Shown: piece by piece, positions 13,308-19,798 of the stretch
How the letters are laid out: each line of letters starts with the position of its first letter
Numbering within the stretch: position 1 is the stretch's first letter
Source: a virus
Taxonomy: Duplodnaviria > Caudoviricetes
IMG/VR virus record: IMGVR_UViG_3300029288_000116
Span: 1-64,000 of that record
Direction: 5' to 3' (one strand)
Length of the DNA stretch: 64,000 nt
Made by a program: the position numbers and the translations under genes
Notes under the pieces: model-generated
Database searches by the model: none
What the model saw: only the letters and a program-made list of their open reading frames with translations
Told to the model about the DNA's origin: nothing

Positions 13308-13880
13308 TTACATTTCGATAAAAACTTCATATAATTCTGGACTCCAGTTTTCCGTAAGATATTTTTTGGCTCTATCCCAAAATTCCCGTACTGAACACTT
13401 GTACCATTCTTCGCACCCCACTCCTTTTACTGGAGAAAAGCGGCACCAAATTTCATCGGTCATTTTAAGATAGATTCTTTTATAATGTCTTTTAAATTTT
13501 TTGTTAAGAATGGTTCCTTGATACGCCCAATGAATGTCATATGCTGAATCATACCAAAAATTTTTTGATTTATAGTGTTTAACGTCTAATTTTTTAAATT
13601 CATTGAGTTTAAGAAGTTCTTCGGTTCCTAATTTAGTATGTAAGTCTTCTAAATTATTAAGTTTTTCCTGTTCCTCTTTCGTAAAGTCTAATCTTCCGTT
13701 ACCACCACCTAAAAAATGTAATTCAGAAGAAAACTGAATTGGAATAGCCCAGATTCCTCTTTTAGCTGGGGTAGTGTTTCCTTCTCTATGAGTTTGGTAT
13801 TGACCATTAACTGGGCCCAGTCTCACAAAAATATGTTTTTCGCTAGGTTTTCTCATAGAACGTTTTCTGAAGTTCTTCAT
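13308..13880 (-). CDS. hypothetical early protein, probably leaderless
   Basis: 190 aa ORF; ATG lies 7 nt after TATAAT with no RBS. Confidence 0.75.
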   Translation of the reverse strand: MKNFRKRSMRKPSEKHIFVRLGPVNGQYQTHREGNTTPAKRGIWAIPIQFSSELHFLGGGNGRLDFTKEEQEKLNNLEDLHTKLGTEELLKLNEFKKLDVKHYKSKNFWYDSAYDIHWAYQGTILNKKFKRHYKRIYLKMTDEIWCRFSPVKGVGCEEWYKCSVREFWDRAKKYLTENWSPELYEVFIEM

Positions 13881-13887
13881 AATGGTT

Positions 13888-13917
13888 ATTATACCATAAT
13901 ATGAAACTTTCTGAAAC
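13888..13917 (-). promoter_or_regulatory. early promoter of the GTTTCAG class
   Basis: GTTTCAG-17 nt-TATAAT. Confidence 0.75.
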
Positions 13918-13923
13918 CAGATT

Positions 13924-13966
13924 TATAAATATTATATTTACATTTTTCCACTATATAGTATAAATA
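13924..13966 (+). promoter_or_regulatory. two T4-type late (gp55) promoter boxes
   Basis: TATAAATA at 13924-13931 and 13959-13966, upstream of the gp16-like gene. Confidence 0.7.
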
Positions 13967-13972
13967 TAATAT

Positions 13973-14353
13973 ATGGACGACGTTTTCAATATACCAGAAG
14001 AAAAAGAGTCCCCAGAGGATTTACTAAGGGCAAACATAGAGAAAGCTAATGAAATATTAAATATAGCCATGTCTAATATTTCAGCTGGGCTGGCAACGCC
14101 GAGAATGCTAGAAGTGGCCGCCAAATTAGTGGACTCAGTTACAAACGCAGCAGAAAAATTAATTGGGGCCGGGTTCGATCTAGAGAGTTTACTTTTAAAA
14201 GAGCGTTTGATAAAATTAAAAGAAAAGGAATTAATGTTGAAATCTAATACGGACGGAGTCCCAAAAACTTTGAATCAGAACATAATCGTGAGTAGCAGAG
14301 AAGACCTTCTAAAGCTATTTCAATCTAAAAAGGGGAATGAGAATGATGAATGA
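13973..14353 (+). CDS. gp16: terminase small subunit (T4 gp16-like)
   Basis: PRMLEVAAKLVDSVTNAAEKL and NQNIIVSSREDLLKL resemble the gp16 motifs PR.YEV..QL......DKL and NN..FVGST.EL.K.L. Confidence 0.7.
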   Translation: MDDVFNIPEEKESPEDLLRANIEKANEILNIAMSNISAGLATPRMLEVAAKLVDSVTNAAEKLIGAGFDLESLLLKERLIKLKEKELMLKSNTDGVPKTLNQNIIVSSREDLLKLFQSKKGNENDE

Positions 14354-16292
14354 AAAGGATTTTAGAGAAGTTATTATTTCTCAAAGATCAAAATCAAAAG
14401 TAGAAGAATGGGCAGGTGCAGCTTTAGATTATTTGTATTTAGTAAAAGAAAATCCTGAGATTGCGCAATTTGCTCCTAGCAGATTGTATAATGCATTAAT
14501 GAAATATGGTACAGAACCTATCGACGATGATAATAAAATTAGAGGATATGAGGATCTTATAAAGTATAATTATTTTGATGATAAGATTTATGGTACTCAG
14601 GAATCTTTACATGATATTATGAAATTTTTTAAGGCCTCTGCTCGTAGGACAGAAACCGGCAGAAGAATTCTTATTCTGGTAGGCCCAGTATCTTCAGGTA
14701 AAAGTACAATAGCTTATATTCTTAAAAGATGTTTAGAGAATGATGACACCCCAGCCTACGAGATTTCTGGGTGCCCAATCCACGAAGATCCCATTCATCT
14801 AATTCCTCTTGGGGACCGGCCATTTTGGGAAGAGCAACTGGGAATTAAAATAGAGGGCAGTCTATGTCCTATTTGCCAAATGAAAATTGACGAAGACTAT
14901 AGAGGCGAATGGGAAAGAGTTCCTGTTAACAGATTCGCCTTTAATGAACAAAGAAGAGTTGGTATTGGTACTTTTCAGCCTTCTGATCCTAAGTCGCAAG
15001 ATGTAAGTGAACTTATTGGAAGAGTTGATTATTCTAAAATGACTATGTACTCAGAAACTGATCCTAGGGCTTTTAAATTTAATGGTGAGCTTCAAGTAGC
15101 CAACCGCGGTATTATTGATTTTATCGAACTTTTAAAGACTGATACTAAACTACTTTATGTTTTGATTACTGCAGCACAGGAACAACTCATTAAAAGTCCT
15201 GGCTTTCCTCAAATGTATATAGATGTTATTTTATTAGCTCATACAAATGAGAGTGAATACTCGAGCTTTAAAGCTGATAAAAAGTCAGAGGCGATTCATG
15301 ATCGTATGTATCCGATTATGGTACCATGGAATCTTAGAGTAGATAATGAAATCCAAATCTATAAGAAACTGATTAAAGAAAGTGAATTTAAAAATATTCA
15401 TATTTCTCCTTTAGCTCTAGAAGTAGCGGCTAAATTTGCAGTATTAACACGCCTTAAAAAGTCTACCAAAGTTTCTTCTCTTATTGAAAAAATGAGACTA
15501 TATAATAATGAAGCACCTGAGGGATTTAAAAGAGAAGAGATCGATATTAAAGAACTTAGACAAGAAGGCAGAGAAAACGCCGAAGGTATGACCGGTATTT
15601 CTCCGAGATTTATTATGAATGCTTTGAATATCGCCTTAGCTTCTAAAGAAGACAAAACTTGTATCAATGCTTTGGATGTTATTCGTAGTTTGAATCACAA
15701 CTTTGAACATCATATTGGATATACTCCAGAAGAAAAGGCAAATTACCAAGCTTTGTTACTCGCAGATAAGGATTCAGTATTAGCCGAATTTAAAACTTTA
15801 GCTAAAAAAGAAGTTCAATTGGCTTTTATCTCTGCCTATGATGATCAAGTCCAGAACTTATTTGCTAATTATCTTAAGAACGCTTTAGCGTATTGCAAGA
15901 AAGAGAAAGTAAAGGACGATGTTCTTGGAGAATTTTCTGATCCTGATGAAAAACTAATGAGAAGTATTGAAGAATCTATCGGAGTTCCTATTAACTCTGT
16001 TAAAGAATTTAGACAAGCTATTTTCGTGCAGAAGAGTTCTTGTCTTGAACGCGGAGAAAAGTTTGACTACACTACATATACTCCATTGAAAGAAGCTATT
16101 GAACATAAGTTAATGAACGATCTTAAGAACGTGGTTTCTTTAACTCTTTGTGATCCTGCTAAATCTCAAGACAAAAAGATCGTAAAGAAGAGGCAAGAAG
16201 TTTTAGATACTCTTAAGGAACGTGGTTATTGCGAATATTGTGCTTACGCTTTGCTTCAGTATGTTGAAGCTTTACTACGGAAAGAATCGTAA
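14337..16292 (+). CDS. prkA: PrkA/YeaG-family AAA+ ATPase (serine kinase / ATP-dependent protease family)
   Basis: LVGPVSSGKST Walker A, CPIHEDP, GIGTFQPSDPKSQD, DPRAF.FNGEL..ANRG..FIE, AHTNESEY, GMTGISPRF, GYC..CA. Confidence 0.95.
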   Translation: MRMMNEKDFREVIISQRSKSKVEEWAGAALDYLYLVKENPEIAQFAPSRLYNALMKYGTEPIDDDNKIRGYEDLIKYNYFDDKIYGTQESLHDIMKFFKASARRTETGRRILILVGPVSSGKSTIAYILKRCLENDDTPAYEISGCPIHEDPIHLIPLGDRPFWEEQLGIKIEGSLCPICQMKIDEDYRGEWERVPVNRFAFNEQRRVGIGTFQPSDPKSQDVSELIGRVDYSKMTMYSETDPRAFKFNGELQVANRGIIDFIELLKTDTKLLYVLITAAQEQLIKSPGFPQMYIDVILLAHTNESEYSSFKADKKSEAIHDRMYPIMVPWNLRVDNEIQIYKKLIKESEFKNIHISPLALEVAAKFAVLTRLKKSTKVSSLIEKMRLYNNEAPEGFKREEIDIKELRQEGRENAEGMTGISPRFIMNALNIALASKEDKTCINALDVIRSLNHNFEHHIGYTPEEKANYQALLLADKDSVLAEFKTLAKKEVQLAFISAYDDQVQNLFANYLKNALAYCKKEKVKDDVLGEFSDPDEKLMRSIEESIGVPINSVKEFRQAIFVQKSSCLERGEKFDYTTYTPLKEAIEHKLMNDLKNVVSLTLCDPAKSQDKKIVKKRQEVLDTLKERGYCEYCAYALLQYVEALLRKES

Positions 16293-16302
16293 GGTAAAAC
16301 AT

Positions 16303-17622
16303 ATGTCGATAGTTGTCCATGATTCTTGGGATCTTTCTGAAAAGTGTAGAAAAGATCGCCAACGCCATAATGAGAAAGTAGATAAGGCTATACGTGATGC
16401 TGCTAGAGATACTTTAGCTGATGAATCTATTATCACTAAACGTGGCGAACGTACTGTAAGAATCCCGGTAAAGGGTCTTAAGGAATGGAGATTTATTTTC
16501 GACCATAACCAAAAAGGAAAGAAAATTGGTGGAGCAGGCCAAGGTAAAATAAAGCCTGGAGATACGATAGCAAAAAAGAATCTAGATCAAGAAGGTAAAG
16601 CTGGAAATCAACCTGGAGAAGATATTATAGAAGTAGATGTGTCTCTAGAATATCTTCTCGAAATTATGTTTGAAGAACTAGGTTTACCTAATCTAGAAGA
16701 CAAAGAAAAGATCGAGAATTTAGTTTCTGCGGGATTTAAATTTGATTCTATAGCTAAAAAGGGTATTCATTCTCAGTTACATAAAAAGAAAACTATCCTA
16801 GAAAGTATCAAAAGATTTGCTGCAGATATACGAGAACTTATGTTAGCCGGGAAGTGTTCAGAAGATGATGCAAAAAGAGCCTACTACCAAGCTAAACATG
16901 ATCTTAAAAAGGCTTTAAAAATAATTTTAACAAACTCTATTGATAAGTATATCGACCCTAATTTAATGAATCCTATGATTAATGATGAGGATCTTAGATT
17001 TAGGAGGGTAGAAGAGAATTTTATTCCTCAAAGTAGGGCTGTAGTAATTTTAATGTGTGATTCTTCAGGTAGTATGGGACAAGAAAAGAAGTATTTAATG
17101 AGATCCTTATTTTTTTGGCTCACACAATTTGTCAGACAATGTTATGAATATGTGGAAATAAGGTTTATAACACATGATACAACAGCGAAGCTTGTGGACG
17201 AGGATGAATTCTTTAAGAAAGGAGAATCCGGGGGTACTTATTGTTATACAGCTTTTGAAATGGCGAATCATTTATTGCAAACTGTGTATCCTGTAGAAGC
17301 CTGGAACGCCTTTTGTTTATACTGCAGTGACGGTGACTCATGGGATGTGAAAAAAGATATAGCGGCTTTAAATCATCTTATAGATTCCGGACTAAGTTTG
17401 TTTGGGTACTATGAAACTCATCCATCAGAAGTTAGGTTCTATGGATTTGATGATGGGGAACTACTCTCAGACATTATAGACGAATTTGATCTTAAAATTT
17501 TGGATATAGGTAAAAATCAAGAGTTCTATAAAAATGTTGATAAACGAATGGTCGCAGGTATAATAAGAAGTAAAGAAGATGTATTTCCAGCACTCAAAGC
17601 TACTCTATATGGAAAGAGGTGA
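16303..17622 (+). CDS. yeaH: YeaH/YhbH (DUF444) vWA-domain protein
   Basis: D..RH, IPVKGLKEWRF, GKAGNQPGED, FEELGLPNL, DLRFR, MIDAS DSSGSM, FF..GESGGT, SDGD; start placed at ATG 16303. Confidence 0.93.
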   Translation: MSIVVHDSWDLSEKCRKDRQRHNEKVDKAIRDAARDTLADESIITKRGERTVRIPVKGLKEWRFIFDHNQKGKKIGGAGQGKIKPGDTIAKKNLDQEGKAGNQPGEDIIEVDVSLEYLLEIMFEELGLPNLEDKEKIENLVSAGFKFDSIAKKGIHSQLHKKKTILESIKRFAADIRELMLAGKCSEDDAKRAYYQAKHDLKKALKIILTNSIDKYIDPNLMNPMINDEDLRFRRVEENFIPQSRAVVILMCDSSGSMGQEKKYLMRSLFFWLTQFVRQCYEYVEIRFITHDTTAKLVDEDEFFKKGESGGTYCYTAFEMANHLLQTVYPVEAWNAFCLYCSDGDSWDVKKDIAALNHLIDSGLSLFGYYETHPSEVRFYGFDDGELLSDIIDEFDLKILDIGKNQEFYKNVDKRMVAGIIRSKEDVFPALKATLYGKR

Positions 17623-17625
17623 TAT

Positions 17626-17718
17626 ATGATAGGATTTATTTTAGGGTTATTAGGGGGTTTATTCGTCGGTCATTTTTTAAGTAAAATGCTTCAAAAACTG
17701 TTAAATAAAGAGAGGTGA
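17626..17718 (+). CDS. 30 aa single-pass membrane peptide
   Basis: GAGGT RBS; MIGFILGLLGGLFVGHFLSKMLQKLLNKER. Confidence 0.55.
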   Translation: MIGFILGLLGGLFVGHFLSKMLQKLLNKER

Positions 17719-17721
17719 TTT

Positions 17722-17850
17722 ATGATTATTGACTGGTACAGGTTCGGCTTCTTTTGTCTTTGTTTATTTGGGTCATTCTTTGCTAGTGGTATTCATGGAA
17801 TTATTTGGTTTATGGCAGGAATAACTTACGTAAATATATGTGAGAGTTAA
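17722..17850 (+). CDS. 42 aa hydrophobic membrane peptide
   Basis: GAGG RBS; MIIDWYRFGFFCLCLFGSFFASGIHGIIWFMAGITYVNICES. Confidence 0.5.
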   Translation: MIIDWYRFGFFCLCLFGSFFASGIHGIIWFMAGITYVNICES

Positions 17851-17852
17851 AG

Positions 17853-18347
17853 ATGAAAAAATGTGAACTATGTGGGGAGACTAGGATATTTCAGGACGAT
17901 CCTACTGATAATGGATATAATTTTGTGGTCTTTTGTTGTTATTCTCAATATCATATAGAATTAAATGGAACACAAAAATTAATACATCAAGGTACCTTAT
18001 GTAAAGACTTTATGTTATATAAACTTAAAAATTCTAGTCCGCATAATGAGTTATCAAACTCTGAAGCAGAAAGGCTTGCGTGGCTTCTCGAAGAACTTGG
18101 AGAAGTACAACAAGCAATAGGTAAAGTACAACAAGCAATAGGTAAAATACTTAGACATGGATATGATAGCAAATGGCCTCCTGATATAGGACCCTCAAAT
18201 AGAGATAATTTAGAAAAAGAAATAAGAGATGTTATCAAGGTGTTAAGATTAATGGACAGATTTACAGATATTAATCTTATGAAAATCGAGAACTCAGTAA
18301 CAGATGACTACTCTAGATGTTATCTACATCACCAGGATCTATCATGA
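17853..18347 (+). CDS. MazG-like NTP pyrophosphohydrolase with N-terminal Cys-rich extension
   Basis: ERLAWLLEELGEVQQAIGK.LRHG ... NRDNLEKEIRDV (EExxE / ExExxD pattern). Confidence 0.75.
   Translation: MKKCELCGETRIFQDDPTDNGYNFVVFCCYSQYHIELNGTQKLIHQGTLCKDFMLYKLKNSSPHNELSNSEAERLAWLLEELGEVQQAIGKVQQAIGKILRHGYDSKWPPDIGPSNRDNLEKEIRDVIKVLRLMDRFTDINLMKIENSVTDDYSRCYLHHQDLS
18103..18144 (+). repeat. perfect 21-bp tandem duplication (VQQAIGK x2)
   Basis: AAGTACAACAAGCAATAGGTA occurs twice in tandem. Confidence 0.95.
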
Positions 18348-19798
18348 AACTGCAAGAAACTCAACGTCTTATTAAAATTGAAGAAAAAATTAAGCAAATC
18401 GCCTCTGAGGAGCTCGGCTTAACTTTTCCTAACATTGAGTTCGATTGTATTCCGGCAGAGAAGATGATCGAAATCATGGCTTGTAGAGGTCCTTCCCAAA
18501 TATCTCATTGGTCTTATGGAAAGAACTATGAAAAAATTAAAACAATCTATAATGAAATTACCCCCGATCTTCCTTATGAAGTTGTTATTAATTCTCTTCC
18601 ACCAAGAGCATATCTTCTTAATAAGAATACCTTAGCAGTTCAGGCCTTGGTCATTGCTCATGTTTATGGACACGTTCATTTCTTTACCAAAAGTAAATTC
18701 TTTTCTAAACATAGAAGAGATATTATAGAACTCATGTCCAATGCCTCTGATAGGTTTAGTAAATACGAAAAGAAATATGGTATTGAAAACGTAGAACCCA
18801 TTATTGATGCTGGGCTGGCTTTACAACAACATGTTAATCCTTATGACGAAGAGACTGAAGAACAGAAAAGAGAACGAGTTTATGAGCACCATAAAAAGAA
18901 AATGCAACCATTTTCTCATGAGTTCTCAGATCTGATTAACACCAATGACCGAGACCGAAATCTTGATATAGAAGCGTATAATAGTCAATTGCGGCTAGCT
19001 CTTAAAAATCTAATTCCAGTAGAGCCAACGGAGGATATTCTACGGTTTATTATTGATAATTCTAGAAACCTTGATGATTGGGAAAAGGATATACTCGAAA
19101 TTATTAGGGAAGAGGGTATGTACTATCACCCAGTTATTAAGACAAAAACAATTAATGAGGGATTTTCCGTCTTTGTGCACCAAAAGATTATGCAAAGACT
19201 TTTTGAGTTAAAATTGCTTACCCAAGAAGAACACGGTCAATACGCGGTAAGTAATTCTCTAGTAAAAGCTCAATCTATGTTTTCCATTAATCCTTATCTA
19301 GTAGGGTCTAAGATGTTAGAAGATATTGAAGACAGATGGAATAAGGGCAAATTTGGAAAAGAATGGGAGAATTGCGAAAATATAACAATAAAAAAGAGTT
19401 GGAATAAGAATCTAGGTTTGGGTTGGAAAAAGGTTTTAGATGTATGTGAATCTTATAATGATTGGTTGTTTATGCAAGATTTTTTAACTACAGACTTAAT
19501 AGAAGAGTTGGAATTATTTATTTATCAGCAGATAGAGACCAGGGACGAAATTAGATTAGTTAGAACAGAACATACTCTAGAAGAGATTAAACAAATGATT
19601 TTAATGAGTTATGCTTTGTCTTATACCCCTAAAATAGAGGTTATAGAAGGAAGAAAAGAATTAATTTTAAGGCATGAATATTTTGGAAATAATCTAGATA
19701 CTAAATATGCTATGGAGACTATAAAACATGTAACAAGACTCTGGGGAGATAAAGTCTTGTTACATACTAGAGATGGAGAAGTTGAATTGGTTTTGTAG
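18344..19798 (+). CDS. spoVR: SpoVR/YcgB family protein
   Basis: HWSYGK.Y, YEVVINS.P..AYL, LVIAHVYGH..FF, EDILRFI, L.DWEKDIL.I.R.E..Y..P...TK..NEG, NPY.VG; ATGA overlap at 18344. Confidence 0.95.
   Translation: MKLQETQRLIKIEEKIKQIASEELGLTFPNIEFDCIPAEKMIEIMACRGPSQISHWSYGKNYEKIKTIYNEITPDLPYEVVINSLPPRAYLLNKNTLAVQALVIAHVYGHVHFFTKSKFFSKHRRDIIELMSNASDRFSKYEKKYGIENVEPIIDAGLALQQHVNPYDEETEEQKRERVYEHHKKKMQPFSHEFSDLINTNDRDRNLDIEAYNSQLRLALKNLIPVEPTEDILRFIIDNSRNLDDWEKDILEIIREEGMYYHPVIKTKTINEGFSVFVHQKIMQRLFELKLLTQEEHGQYAVSNSLVKAQSMFSINPYLVGSKMLEDIEDRWNKGKFGKEWENCENITIKKSWNKNLGLGWKKVLDVCESYNDWLFMQDFLTTDLIEELELFIYQQIETRDEIRLVRTEHTLEEIKQMILMSYALSYTPKIEVIEGRKELILRHEYFGNNLDTKYAMETIKHVTRLWGDKVLLHTRDGEVELVL

Follow-up and report, generated by a model that had tools for sequence, protein, structure and literature searches.

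Gene organisation of the locus

The stretch of DNA analysed here (the window) comprises positions 1 to 64,000 of the IMG/VR virus record IMGVR_UViG_3300029288_000116, and makes up the opening 64 kb of contig C2, which is 95 kb long and forms part of a 1.16-Mb metagenome bin. Between positions 13973 and 19798 it carries homologues of the cellular genes prkA (yeaG in E. coli), yeaH and spoVR, referred to below as the trio, immediately behind a gene resembling gp16, the small terminase gene of T4-like phages (Table 1). The trio is present in most of the relatives of this phage as well, and lies there between the genes for the two terminase subunits.

Table 1 Features of the gp16-prkA-yeaH-spoVR unit and its surroundings. 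Positions are those of the window, except where contig C2 is named.
Feature	Position	Strand	Remarks
Divergent gene	13308-13880	-	Served by the GTTTCAGAAA element at 13908..13917
GTTTCAGAAA early-type -35 element	13908..13917	-	Serves the divergent gene 13308-13880; directed away from the module
TATAAATA box 1	13924..13931	+	The likelier T4-type late promoter; leaves a 41-nucleotide (nt) leader to the gp16-like start
TATAAATA box 2	13959..13966	+	Ends 6 nt before the ATG; too near to leave a leader for the gp16-like start
gp16-type small terminase, 126 residues	13973..14353	+	PHROG 445 at 7e-8; profile match to 44RR gp16 (3TXQ/3TXS)
prkA, 649 residues	14343..16292	+	AAA+ domain and PrkA C-terminal domain (Pfam)
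yeaH (DUF444, vWA), 439 residues	16303..17622	+	Pfam; MIDAS DSSGS at residues 253-257
Small hydrophobic open reading frame (ORF), 30 residues	17626..17718	+	Preceded by GAGGTGA; specific to this phage
Small hydrophobic ORF, 42 residues	17722..17850	+	Lies between yeaH and the MazG-like gene
MazG-like nucleoside triphosphate pyrophosphohydrolase candidate, 164 residues	17853..18347	+	PHROG 4856 at 1.6e-9; Pfam MazG 0.005, below cut-off
spoVR	18345..19798 (ORF 18317-19798)	+	SpoVR and SpoVR_C domains (Pfam)
gp17 large terminase	contig C2 64046-65599	-	Terminase_6N/6C; 46 bp past the end of the window

The genes of the unit are closely packed. The stop codon of the gp16-like gene (14351-14353) overlaps the possible start codons of prkA (14337, 14343 and 14346), which lie behind an AAGGGG Shine-Dalgarno sequence; the form of PrkA in the protein database is the one in Table 1. 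The yeaH gene lies within an ORF at 16222-17622 and probably starts 11 nt past the prkA stop. The likely ATG of spoVR (18345-18347) forms an ATGA overlap with the TGA stop of the MazG-like gene, and 1 nt separates the stop codon of spoVR from that of a convergent gene on the minus strand. An earlier reading of the window from its letters (the original prediction) had described an intact three-gene module, with prkA overlapping the end of a gp16-like gene. The overlap is present, and the three genes are intact as judged by their Pfam domains, Walker A and metal ion-dependent adhesion site (MIDAS) residues. They are not strictly contiguous, in that the two small ORFs and the MazG-like ORF lie between yeaH and spoVR.

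Domains and conserved residues of the three proteins

The original prediction had called for a profile check of the PrkA, DUF444 and SpoVR assignments, and all three families were matched in Pfam. PrkA has a full-length AAA_PrkA domain (PF08298, 4.1e-117, profile positions 4-357 of 358) followed by a full-length PrkA C-terminal domain (PF06798, 7.5e-68, positions 1-255 of 255). YeaH matches DUF444 (PF04285) at 3e-83, and SpoVR matches PF04293 at 7.7e-101 and the SpoVR C-terminal domain PF24755 at 4e-9.

The residues expected to be critical are also conserved. In PrkA's Walker A motif (GPVSSGKS), K120 is invariant in 59 phage, 38 cellular and four Thermus-phage sequences, and in those of Ralstonia phage RsoM2USA and E. 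coli. The MIDAS residues of YeaH (D253/S255/S257/T312/D343) are kept in at least 97% of the phage copies, with DSSGS aligning with DVSGS at position 256 of E. coli YeaH. In SpoVR, 44 columns are at least 97% conserved across the phage clade.

Six cysteines of PrkA (C144, C175, C178, C440, C630 and C633) are invariant in the T4-like phage clade and mostly retained in the Thermus-phage PrkAs. Of the cellular PrkAs sampled, about half to two thirds have them, and E. coli YeaG and RsoM2USA lack them. The Cys-rich PrkA may be a metal-binding subtype.

It is worth adding that the AAA+ domain of PrkA is interrupted by LAGLIDADG inteins in some relatives (L080:4758-10397, L076:5994-9296 and L084:5754-9146). 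The first of these has three inteins in a single open frame of 1,880 residues, one of them at the Walker A loop. Free-standing endonuclease genes, of HNH type or with a CapR/zinc finger joined to a restriction endonuclease/Vsr-like domain, recur in the prkA-yeaH and yeaH-spoVR gaps of relatives (for example L007:10043-10723, L052:10020-10736, L029:12072-12983 and L025:13074-14309).

Identity of the phage

The large terminase gene gp17 was said in the original prediction to be missing from the window. It is indeed outside it, further along C2 on the strand opposite to gp16 (Table 1), so that about 46-50 kb separate it from the gp16-like gene and the trio. C2 also encodes a portal protein (gp20; PHROG 213, 1e-89), a gp21 prohead protease (Peptidase_S77, 1e-24) and a major capsid protein (Gp23, 7e-97). 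By these core genes the phage is classified as T4-like (Straboviridae/Kyanoviridae-like). Its large terminase protein (TerL) is at most 35% identical to that of any cultured phage, the top matches being cyanomyophages and other T4-like phages. The best PrkA among cultured phages is 36% identical. A megablast search of the region against 50,697 phage records gave no match, nor did a tblastn search of the gp16-like protein against cultured phage records.

Two further contigs of the bin, C7 and C12, share TnpB copies and promoter cassettes with C2, and all three are therefore assigned to one phage genome of about 175 kb. No second prkA or spoVR is present in the assembly that holds these contigs. 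In the rest of the bin, the uL2 protein clusters at 90% identity with that of Candidatus Shapirobacteria. The co-binning of the phage contigs with a Shapirobacteria-like genome is probably an artefact missed by marker-based contamination scores, and it is no evidence for the host. Of 45 CRISPR-like short matches that the phage contig has elsewhere in the bin, the 40 inspected all fell on C7 and C12, that is, on the same phage, and gave no host link. A true link to Shapirobacteria would be remarkable.

Conservation of the gene cluster

Relatives were collected from IMG/VR by an alignment-based scan with PrkA, which gave 80 loci at 53-64% identity, and their neighbouring genes were identified by tblastn; a single-protein pattern scan of IMG/VR for relatives gave no matches. 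Among the 80 contigs, and in the same order of genes, a gp16-like gene is found immediately upstream of prkA in 76, YeaH in 74, SpoVR in 70, and TerL directly downstream on the same strand in 64. The gp16-prkA junction is the tightest of the cluster, with a median gap of -11 nt; it is 100 nt or less in 75 of 78 contigs, and many of the genes overlap. The median gaps are 8 nt for yeaH-spoVR and 86 nt for spoVR-TerL. The adjacency of gp16 and prkA, which the original prediction proposed to survey, is thus not unique to this genome.

A second sample was drawn independently, starting from TerL. Where enough upstream sequence was available, spoVR lies directly upstream of TerL in 54 of 57 loci, and the ancestral order is therefore gp16-prkA-yeaH-spoVR-gp17.

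The phage described here departs from this order, and its closest relatives indicate how. Two contigs with TerL proteins 85% identical to that of this phage (L150 and L151) have the order TerL, fibre-like gene, head-closure gene, portal, as in this phage. In a third (L092), whose PrkA is 85% identical, gp16-prkA-yeaH-spoVR leads up to the convergent genes that are also found in the window, and there is no TerL. In this sub-lineage, therefore, gp17 has been relocated while gp16 has remained beside the trio. The other relatives have head-closure gene, portal, about 5 kb, gp16, trio and TerL, as opposed to TerL, fibre-like gene, head-closure gene and portal here. A single inversion of 19.8-65.6 kb was considered as the event that separated gp17 from the trio, but is ruled out by the gene orders, which require more than one inversion. 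The original prediction placed prkA in the slot where gp17 normally sits; prkA is, however, no replacement for gp17, the ancestral arrangement having been gp16-trio-gp17.

Three other contigs (L057, L058 and L059) keep gp16-prkA-yeaH and have no spoVR or TerL within 8 kb downstream. They are possibly a natural two-gene variant of the module.

The MazG-like gene is missing from the closest relative, L092, which also has no space for the two small ORFs; it is therefore outside the conserved unit. The MazG-like ORF is Cys-rich in an N-terminal stretch, and within it 21 bp are perfectly duplicated in tandem (18105-18146), so that seven residues are repeated; the two small ORFs in front of it may encode membrane peptides. 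A σ70-like site (TTGATA-16-TATAAT, 11 of 12 matches) at 17537-17564 could drive the inserted cassette of small genes.

Origin and selection

Cellular PrkAs were sampled by a scan of 185,579 species genomes, restricted by two peptide search patterns. The closest sequences are on three small contigs from metagenome-assembled genomes, at 60-63% identity, and are placed inside the phage clade. The next sequences, from Cloacimonadota, Krumholzibacteriota, Latescibacterota, Planctomycetota, Bdellovibrionota, Myxococcota and others, reach no more than 41%, a sharp drop, and no gp16 or TerL is found near these cellular loci. In a maximum-likelihood tree, the PrkAs of the T4-like phages form one clade, which has a Shimodaira-Hasegawa-like approximate likelihood ratio (SH-aLRT) support of 100 and whose stem is 0.99 substitutions per site long. 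The PrkAs of the Thermus phages make up a separate clade, and that of Ralstonia phage RsoM2USA groups with E. coli YeaG. Because these three groups are placed apart in the tree, phages have acquired the module at least three times. In the case discussed here, it was the ancestor of a large uncultured T4-like lineage that took up the trio, a single time and long ago, in the position between gp16 and gp17.

Thirty distinct relatives with all five genes were used for pairwise comparison and Mantel tests. PrkA is more conserved than TerL, with mean pairwise identities of 67.5% and 60.7% respectively; the values for the others are 58.6% (YeaH), 54.2% (SpoVR) and 37.9% (gp16). The distances of all four genes correlate with those of TerL (Mantel r 0.62-0.86, p 0.001). 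Most pairs were unusable for the ratio of nonsynonymous to synonymous substitution rates (dN/dS), either because dS was saturated or because automatic ORF starts mis-threaded the codons, and the values come from the pair L043/L086 and from PrkA and YeaH of the pair formed by the window and L092. In a single unsaturated pair, dN/dS is 0.135 for PrkA, 0.16 for YeaH and 0.21 for SpoVR, compared to 0.15 for TerL; the overall range used for the trio is 0.13-0.21. Since its acquisition the trio has been passed on vertically, with purifying selection acting on it as strongly as on the terminase. The conservation, the inteins and the homing endonucleases are the marks of a core gene rather than a passenger.

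The original prediction had named a recent neutral capture of host genes as one outcome that would refute it. The three genes are cellular in origin, and phages often carry passenger genes that have no role in the phage. However, the phage PrkAs are monophyletic, with a long stem and a low identity to the sampled cellular copies; the trio is found in 54 of the 57 TerL-sampled relatives; dN/dS is low; and the conservation of PrkA is beyond that of TerL, all of which contradicts such a capture. A recent passenger origin is thus extremely unlikely, and the tree, dN/dS and Mantel tests all point to an old, vertically inherited acquisition.

Identity of the small terminase

The ORF at 13973-14353 has no Pfam match. 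It matches PHROG 445, a small terminase family, and a profile of its orthologues was built from the related contigs (30 aligned). Against 177,635 PDB sequences this profile gave exactly two matches, 3TXQ and 3TXS, both gp16 of the T4-like phage 44RR (E 0.0012). The match covers the central hairpin, with a common S(A/P)R.VEV..QL motif. Two of the 30 orthologues have weak matches to Pfam PF11053. AlphaFold (AF2), run on the 30-orthologue alignment, models the protein as a helical hairpin with a predicted local distance difference test score (pLDDT) of about 90. The model superimposes on 3TXQ at 1.9 Å over 59 columns, although 3TXQ ranked only fifth in Foldseek, with a non-significant E-value, helical hairpins being unspecific. 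The ORF is the only one of the gp16 family in the whole assembly. We accept it as the small terminase, as originally proposed, with a small residual doubt.

The doubt arises because the gp16-like gene is not beside the large terminase gene here; in 64 of the 80 relatives, gp16 and gp17 are in one cluster with the trio between them. The 126-residue protein could in principle be a gp16-derived partner of the trio and not a working small terminase, which would then be an unrecognised gene beside the relocated gp17. Its similarity to gp16 is modest, it lies about 50 kb from gp17, and two genes directly upstream of gp17, encoding 517 residues (C2:65603-67156, minus strand) and 268 residues (C2:67157-67963, minus strand), have no PHROG match and are candidates for such a gene. 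On the other hand, the ORF has no competitor of its family in the assembly, the spoVR-TerL gap of the relatives has no space for another gene, the profile matches nothing in the PDB but 44RR gp16, and the distances of the gp16-like protein follow those of TerL best of all the genes (Mantel r 0.86). We therefore regard this alternative as very unlikely. A homologue of the 517-residue protein, 46% identical, is found in L057-L059, near their truncated module.

Promoters

Two TATAAATA boxes, the sequence of T4 late promoters, lie just upstream of the gp16-like gene, as the original prediction had stated (Table 1). They lack a -35 element, as is characteristic of a T4-type late unit. Over the whole window the box is not more frequent than expected by chance (10 observed, 13.8 expected). 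Its position is more informative: of 15 sites on C2, seven are within 100 nt upstream of an ORF on the same strand, several of these being large ORFs on the strand of the head genes. Because this occurs in a contig that is 91% coding, TATAAATA appears to behave here like the T4 late promoter.

The relatives give the same picture. Exact TATAAATA matches within 150 nt were counted over distinct upstream regions, for which the background is 3.7% of 160-nt windows. The box is found before the gp16-like gene in 25 of 54 relatives and before TerL in 27 of 49, and is absent before prkA (0/61), yeaH (0/57) and spoVR (0/55). In L092 a box lies about 70 nt upstream of gp16. This distribution fits one late transcript covering gp16 and the trio, with gp17 under a separate late promoter, and the motif evidence thus agrees with the earlier placing of the unit behind T4-type late boxes. 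It had also been noted that no early cassette is directed into the unit. The GTTTCAGAAA elements nearby, at 13908 and 13291, are both on the minus strand and directed away, and there is none on the plus strand inside the unit.

Possible function of the trio

On the basis of the observations above, the trio is probably functional, expressed late and selected as a unit. A lytic virus that carries about 4.5 kb for it presumably gains something important from the machine. What that may be is best approached from the cellular proteins. Neither kinase nor autophosphorylation activity was seen with PrkA of B. subtilis, whose C-terminal P-loop is degenerate; in vitro the protein is an ATP-dependent, PMSF (phenylmethylsulfonyl fluoride)-sensitive protease on casein, dependent on the Walker A residue K108 (PMC9512850). 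YeaG of E. coli, also named SpdA, is needed for the breakdown of cytoplasmic proteins that starvation induces, a largely non-specific process that provides amino acids and ATP for making new proteins (PMC13684143). In six bacteria, the genes yeaG, yeaH and ycgB (the E. coli spoVR) have one another as their best cofitness partners (10.1101/072470). The papers of 2022 and 2026 favour bulk proteolysis driven by ATP over signalling by a kinase (PMC9512850, PMC13684143).

We therefore tentatively favour, as the best single reading though one in which our confidence is limited, a late ATP-driven machine that degrades or remodels host proteins and so recycles them. The TATAAATA transcript would yield gp16, PrkA, YeaH and SpoVR together. 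PrkA would be the AAA+ motor or protease, YeaH a putative vWA/MIDAS adaptor and SpoVR the third partner, cooperating as they do in cells. Made late, the machine would degrade host cytoplasmic proteins non-specifically, and the freed amino acids and energy would feed the burst in which virion proteins are made, with most benefit in hosts that grow slowly or are starved. The link to gp16 would mainly set timing and dose. The process would be the protein counterpart of the recycling of host DNA into nucleotides by T4.

Several points weigh against protein recycling. The protease activity of PrkA in vitro is slow, requiring 24 h on casein (PMC9512850), and in E. coli the turnover that depends on YeaG amounts to no more than a few percent per hour (PMC13684143); a lytic cycle may leave too little time at such rates, unless the latent period is long. 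Phage proteins, too, would be hit by non-specific proteolysis. The promoter evidence for late expression is motif-based. Finally, the tight gp16-prkA junction, and the position of the trio near TerL or the portal in two Thermus phages, could indicate a role linked to packaging.

This last point leads to the main alternative, in which the trio is a packaging or head-assembly factor acting on the terminase, portal, prohead or scaffold, as a MoxR-like chaperone or a dedicated protease. It would be in keeping with the trio being flanked by gp16 and gp17 in most members of the lineage, with the gp16-prkA junction being the tightest, and with gp16 having stayed with the trio after gp17 moved. The genes of Thermus phage Lalka27b run portal, minor head protein, vWA, SpoVR-like, PrkA, two small ORFs and TerL, and TerL of phiYS40 lies three genes away from the trio. 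However, the cellular homologues work without a phage. In Thermus phages MN1 and phiLo and in RsoM2USA, no terminase is annotated or detected within the 7-8 kb examined on either side of the trio, and this separation from the terminase weakens a packaging-specific role. In addition, the phage already has a gp21 prohead protease, and TerL has its own late promoter in the relatives, so that no trio is required to connect the two terminase genes. We consider a packaging or assembly factor of this kind rather unlikely. That the trio takes a working part in packaging DNA or maturing heads, for example as an AAA+/vWA remodeller or protease on terminase, portal or prohead, we rate as unlikely. If true, it would explain why the trio stayed with gp16 after gp17 left and why unrelated Thermus phages keep it beside TerL or the portal, and it would be a new class of virion-assembly factor derived from a cellular starvation system. 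PrkA was also considered as a substitute prohead protease, which is ruled out by the phage's own gp21 homologue.

The other alternative is a regulatory takeover of the host, with the trio as a signalling module, in line with the historical 'serine kinase' view, that drives the host into a stationary or dormant state or keeps it out of one, or that sets the timing of lysis. The MazG family has been discussed in connection with phage-host starvation signalling, and a MazG-like gene is inserted in the operon here. YeaG was reported, in work cited in PMC9512850 and PMC13684143, to autophosphorylate and to affect adaptation to nitrogen starvation, and Price et al. proposed a signalling pathway (10.1101/072470). 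The absence of kinase activity and the degenerate P-loop of B. subtilis PrkA argue against this (PMC9512850), late expression is ill suited to reprogramming of the host, and the MazG-like gene is not conserved even in L092. A regulatory role is improbable, and both signalling or dormancy and sporulation roles rest mostly on old annotations. For example, viral copies of spoVR have been scored as 'sporulation' auxiliary genes (PMC8940887), a reading of the phage gene that rests on its name only; our findings correct the habit of scoring viral spoVR in this way.

The trio is among the most widespread bacterial modules with an unresolved mechanism, and its link to ATP-dependent or bulk starvation proteolysis dates only from 2022 and 2026. 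If phages use it to recycle host protein into virion building blocks, this would be a new viral strategy of resource acquisition, most relevant to the starved cells of sediments, digesters and landfills. The phage copies offer a compact, self-contained trio for biochemistry and structure determination, and the culturable Thermus phages a genetic test bed. In the literature searched, we found no paper describing the gp16-trio-gp17 layout or a function of the trio in a phage. New here are the promoter statistics, the sampling that starts from TerL, the sub-lineage that gp17 left and in which gp16 stayed, the inteins, and the link to the 2026 SpdA paper.

Comparison with known systems

The closest cellular counterpart is the PrkA/YeaG(SpdA)-YeaH/YhbH-SpoVR/YcgB module (yeaGH and ycgB in E. 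coli; prkA-yhbH and spoVR in B. subtilis). The phage trio has the same three full-length Pfam families, the same gene order as the majority of cellular operons (25 of 45 sampled cellular loci are colinear) and the same Walker A and MIDAS residues. It differs in that its PrkA forms a clade of its own, at most 41% identical to the sampled cellular PrkAs, and is Cys-rich at the six positions given above, unlike E. coli YeaG. It also differs in being virus-encoded, behind a predicted T4-type late promoter and with its start overlapping the small terminase gene, which predicts translational coupling.

Some cultured lytic tailed phages also have the full trio, namely Thermus phages phiYS40 (RefSeq record NC_008584), TMA, YS40_Isch, phiLo, MN1 and Lalka8/27a/27b, and the Ralstonia jumbo phage RsoM2USA, for which it was listed without comment (PMC8504454). 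Phage genome records have contained the trio for years, as the phiYS40 record shows. In two of the cultured phages the trio adjoins TerL or the portal. Their PrkAs are, however, only 28-36% identical to that of this phage and come from separate acquisitions, and the Thermus phages have the order vWA-SpoVR-PrkA, unlike this lineage. None of the cultured carriers is T4-like, and none has gp16 overlapping in front.

In MoxR-type pairs such as RavA-ViaA, the gene for an AAA+ ATPase likewise lies beside a vWA/MIDAS gene, which suggests ATP-driven action on proteins. No protein of the unit matched the MoxR families in Pfam scans. PrkA, unlike the MoxR ATPases, belongs to an AAA subfamily of its own with a large C-terminal domain, and has an obligatory third partner in SpoVR.

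Finally, the cluster resembles the gp16-gp17 operon of T4 in having a gp16-type small and a gp17-type large subunit (Terminase_6N/6C), TATAAATA late boxes, and gp20, gp21 and gp23 in the same genome. Unlike T4, the lineage has about 4-5.5 kb of cellular-type genes between gp16 and gp17, and in the phage described here gp17 has in addition moved about 46-50 kb from gp16 and lies on the other strand.

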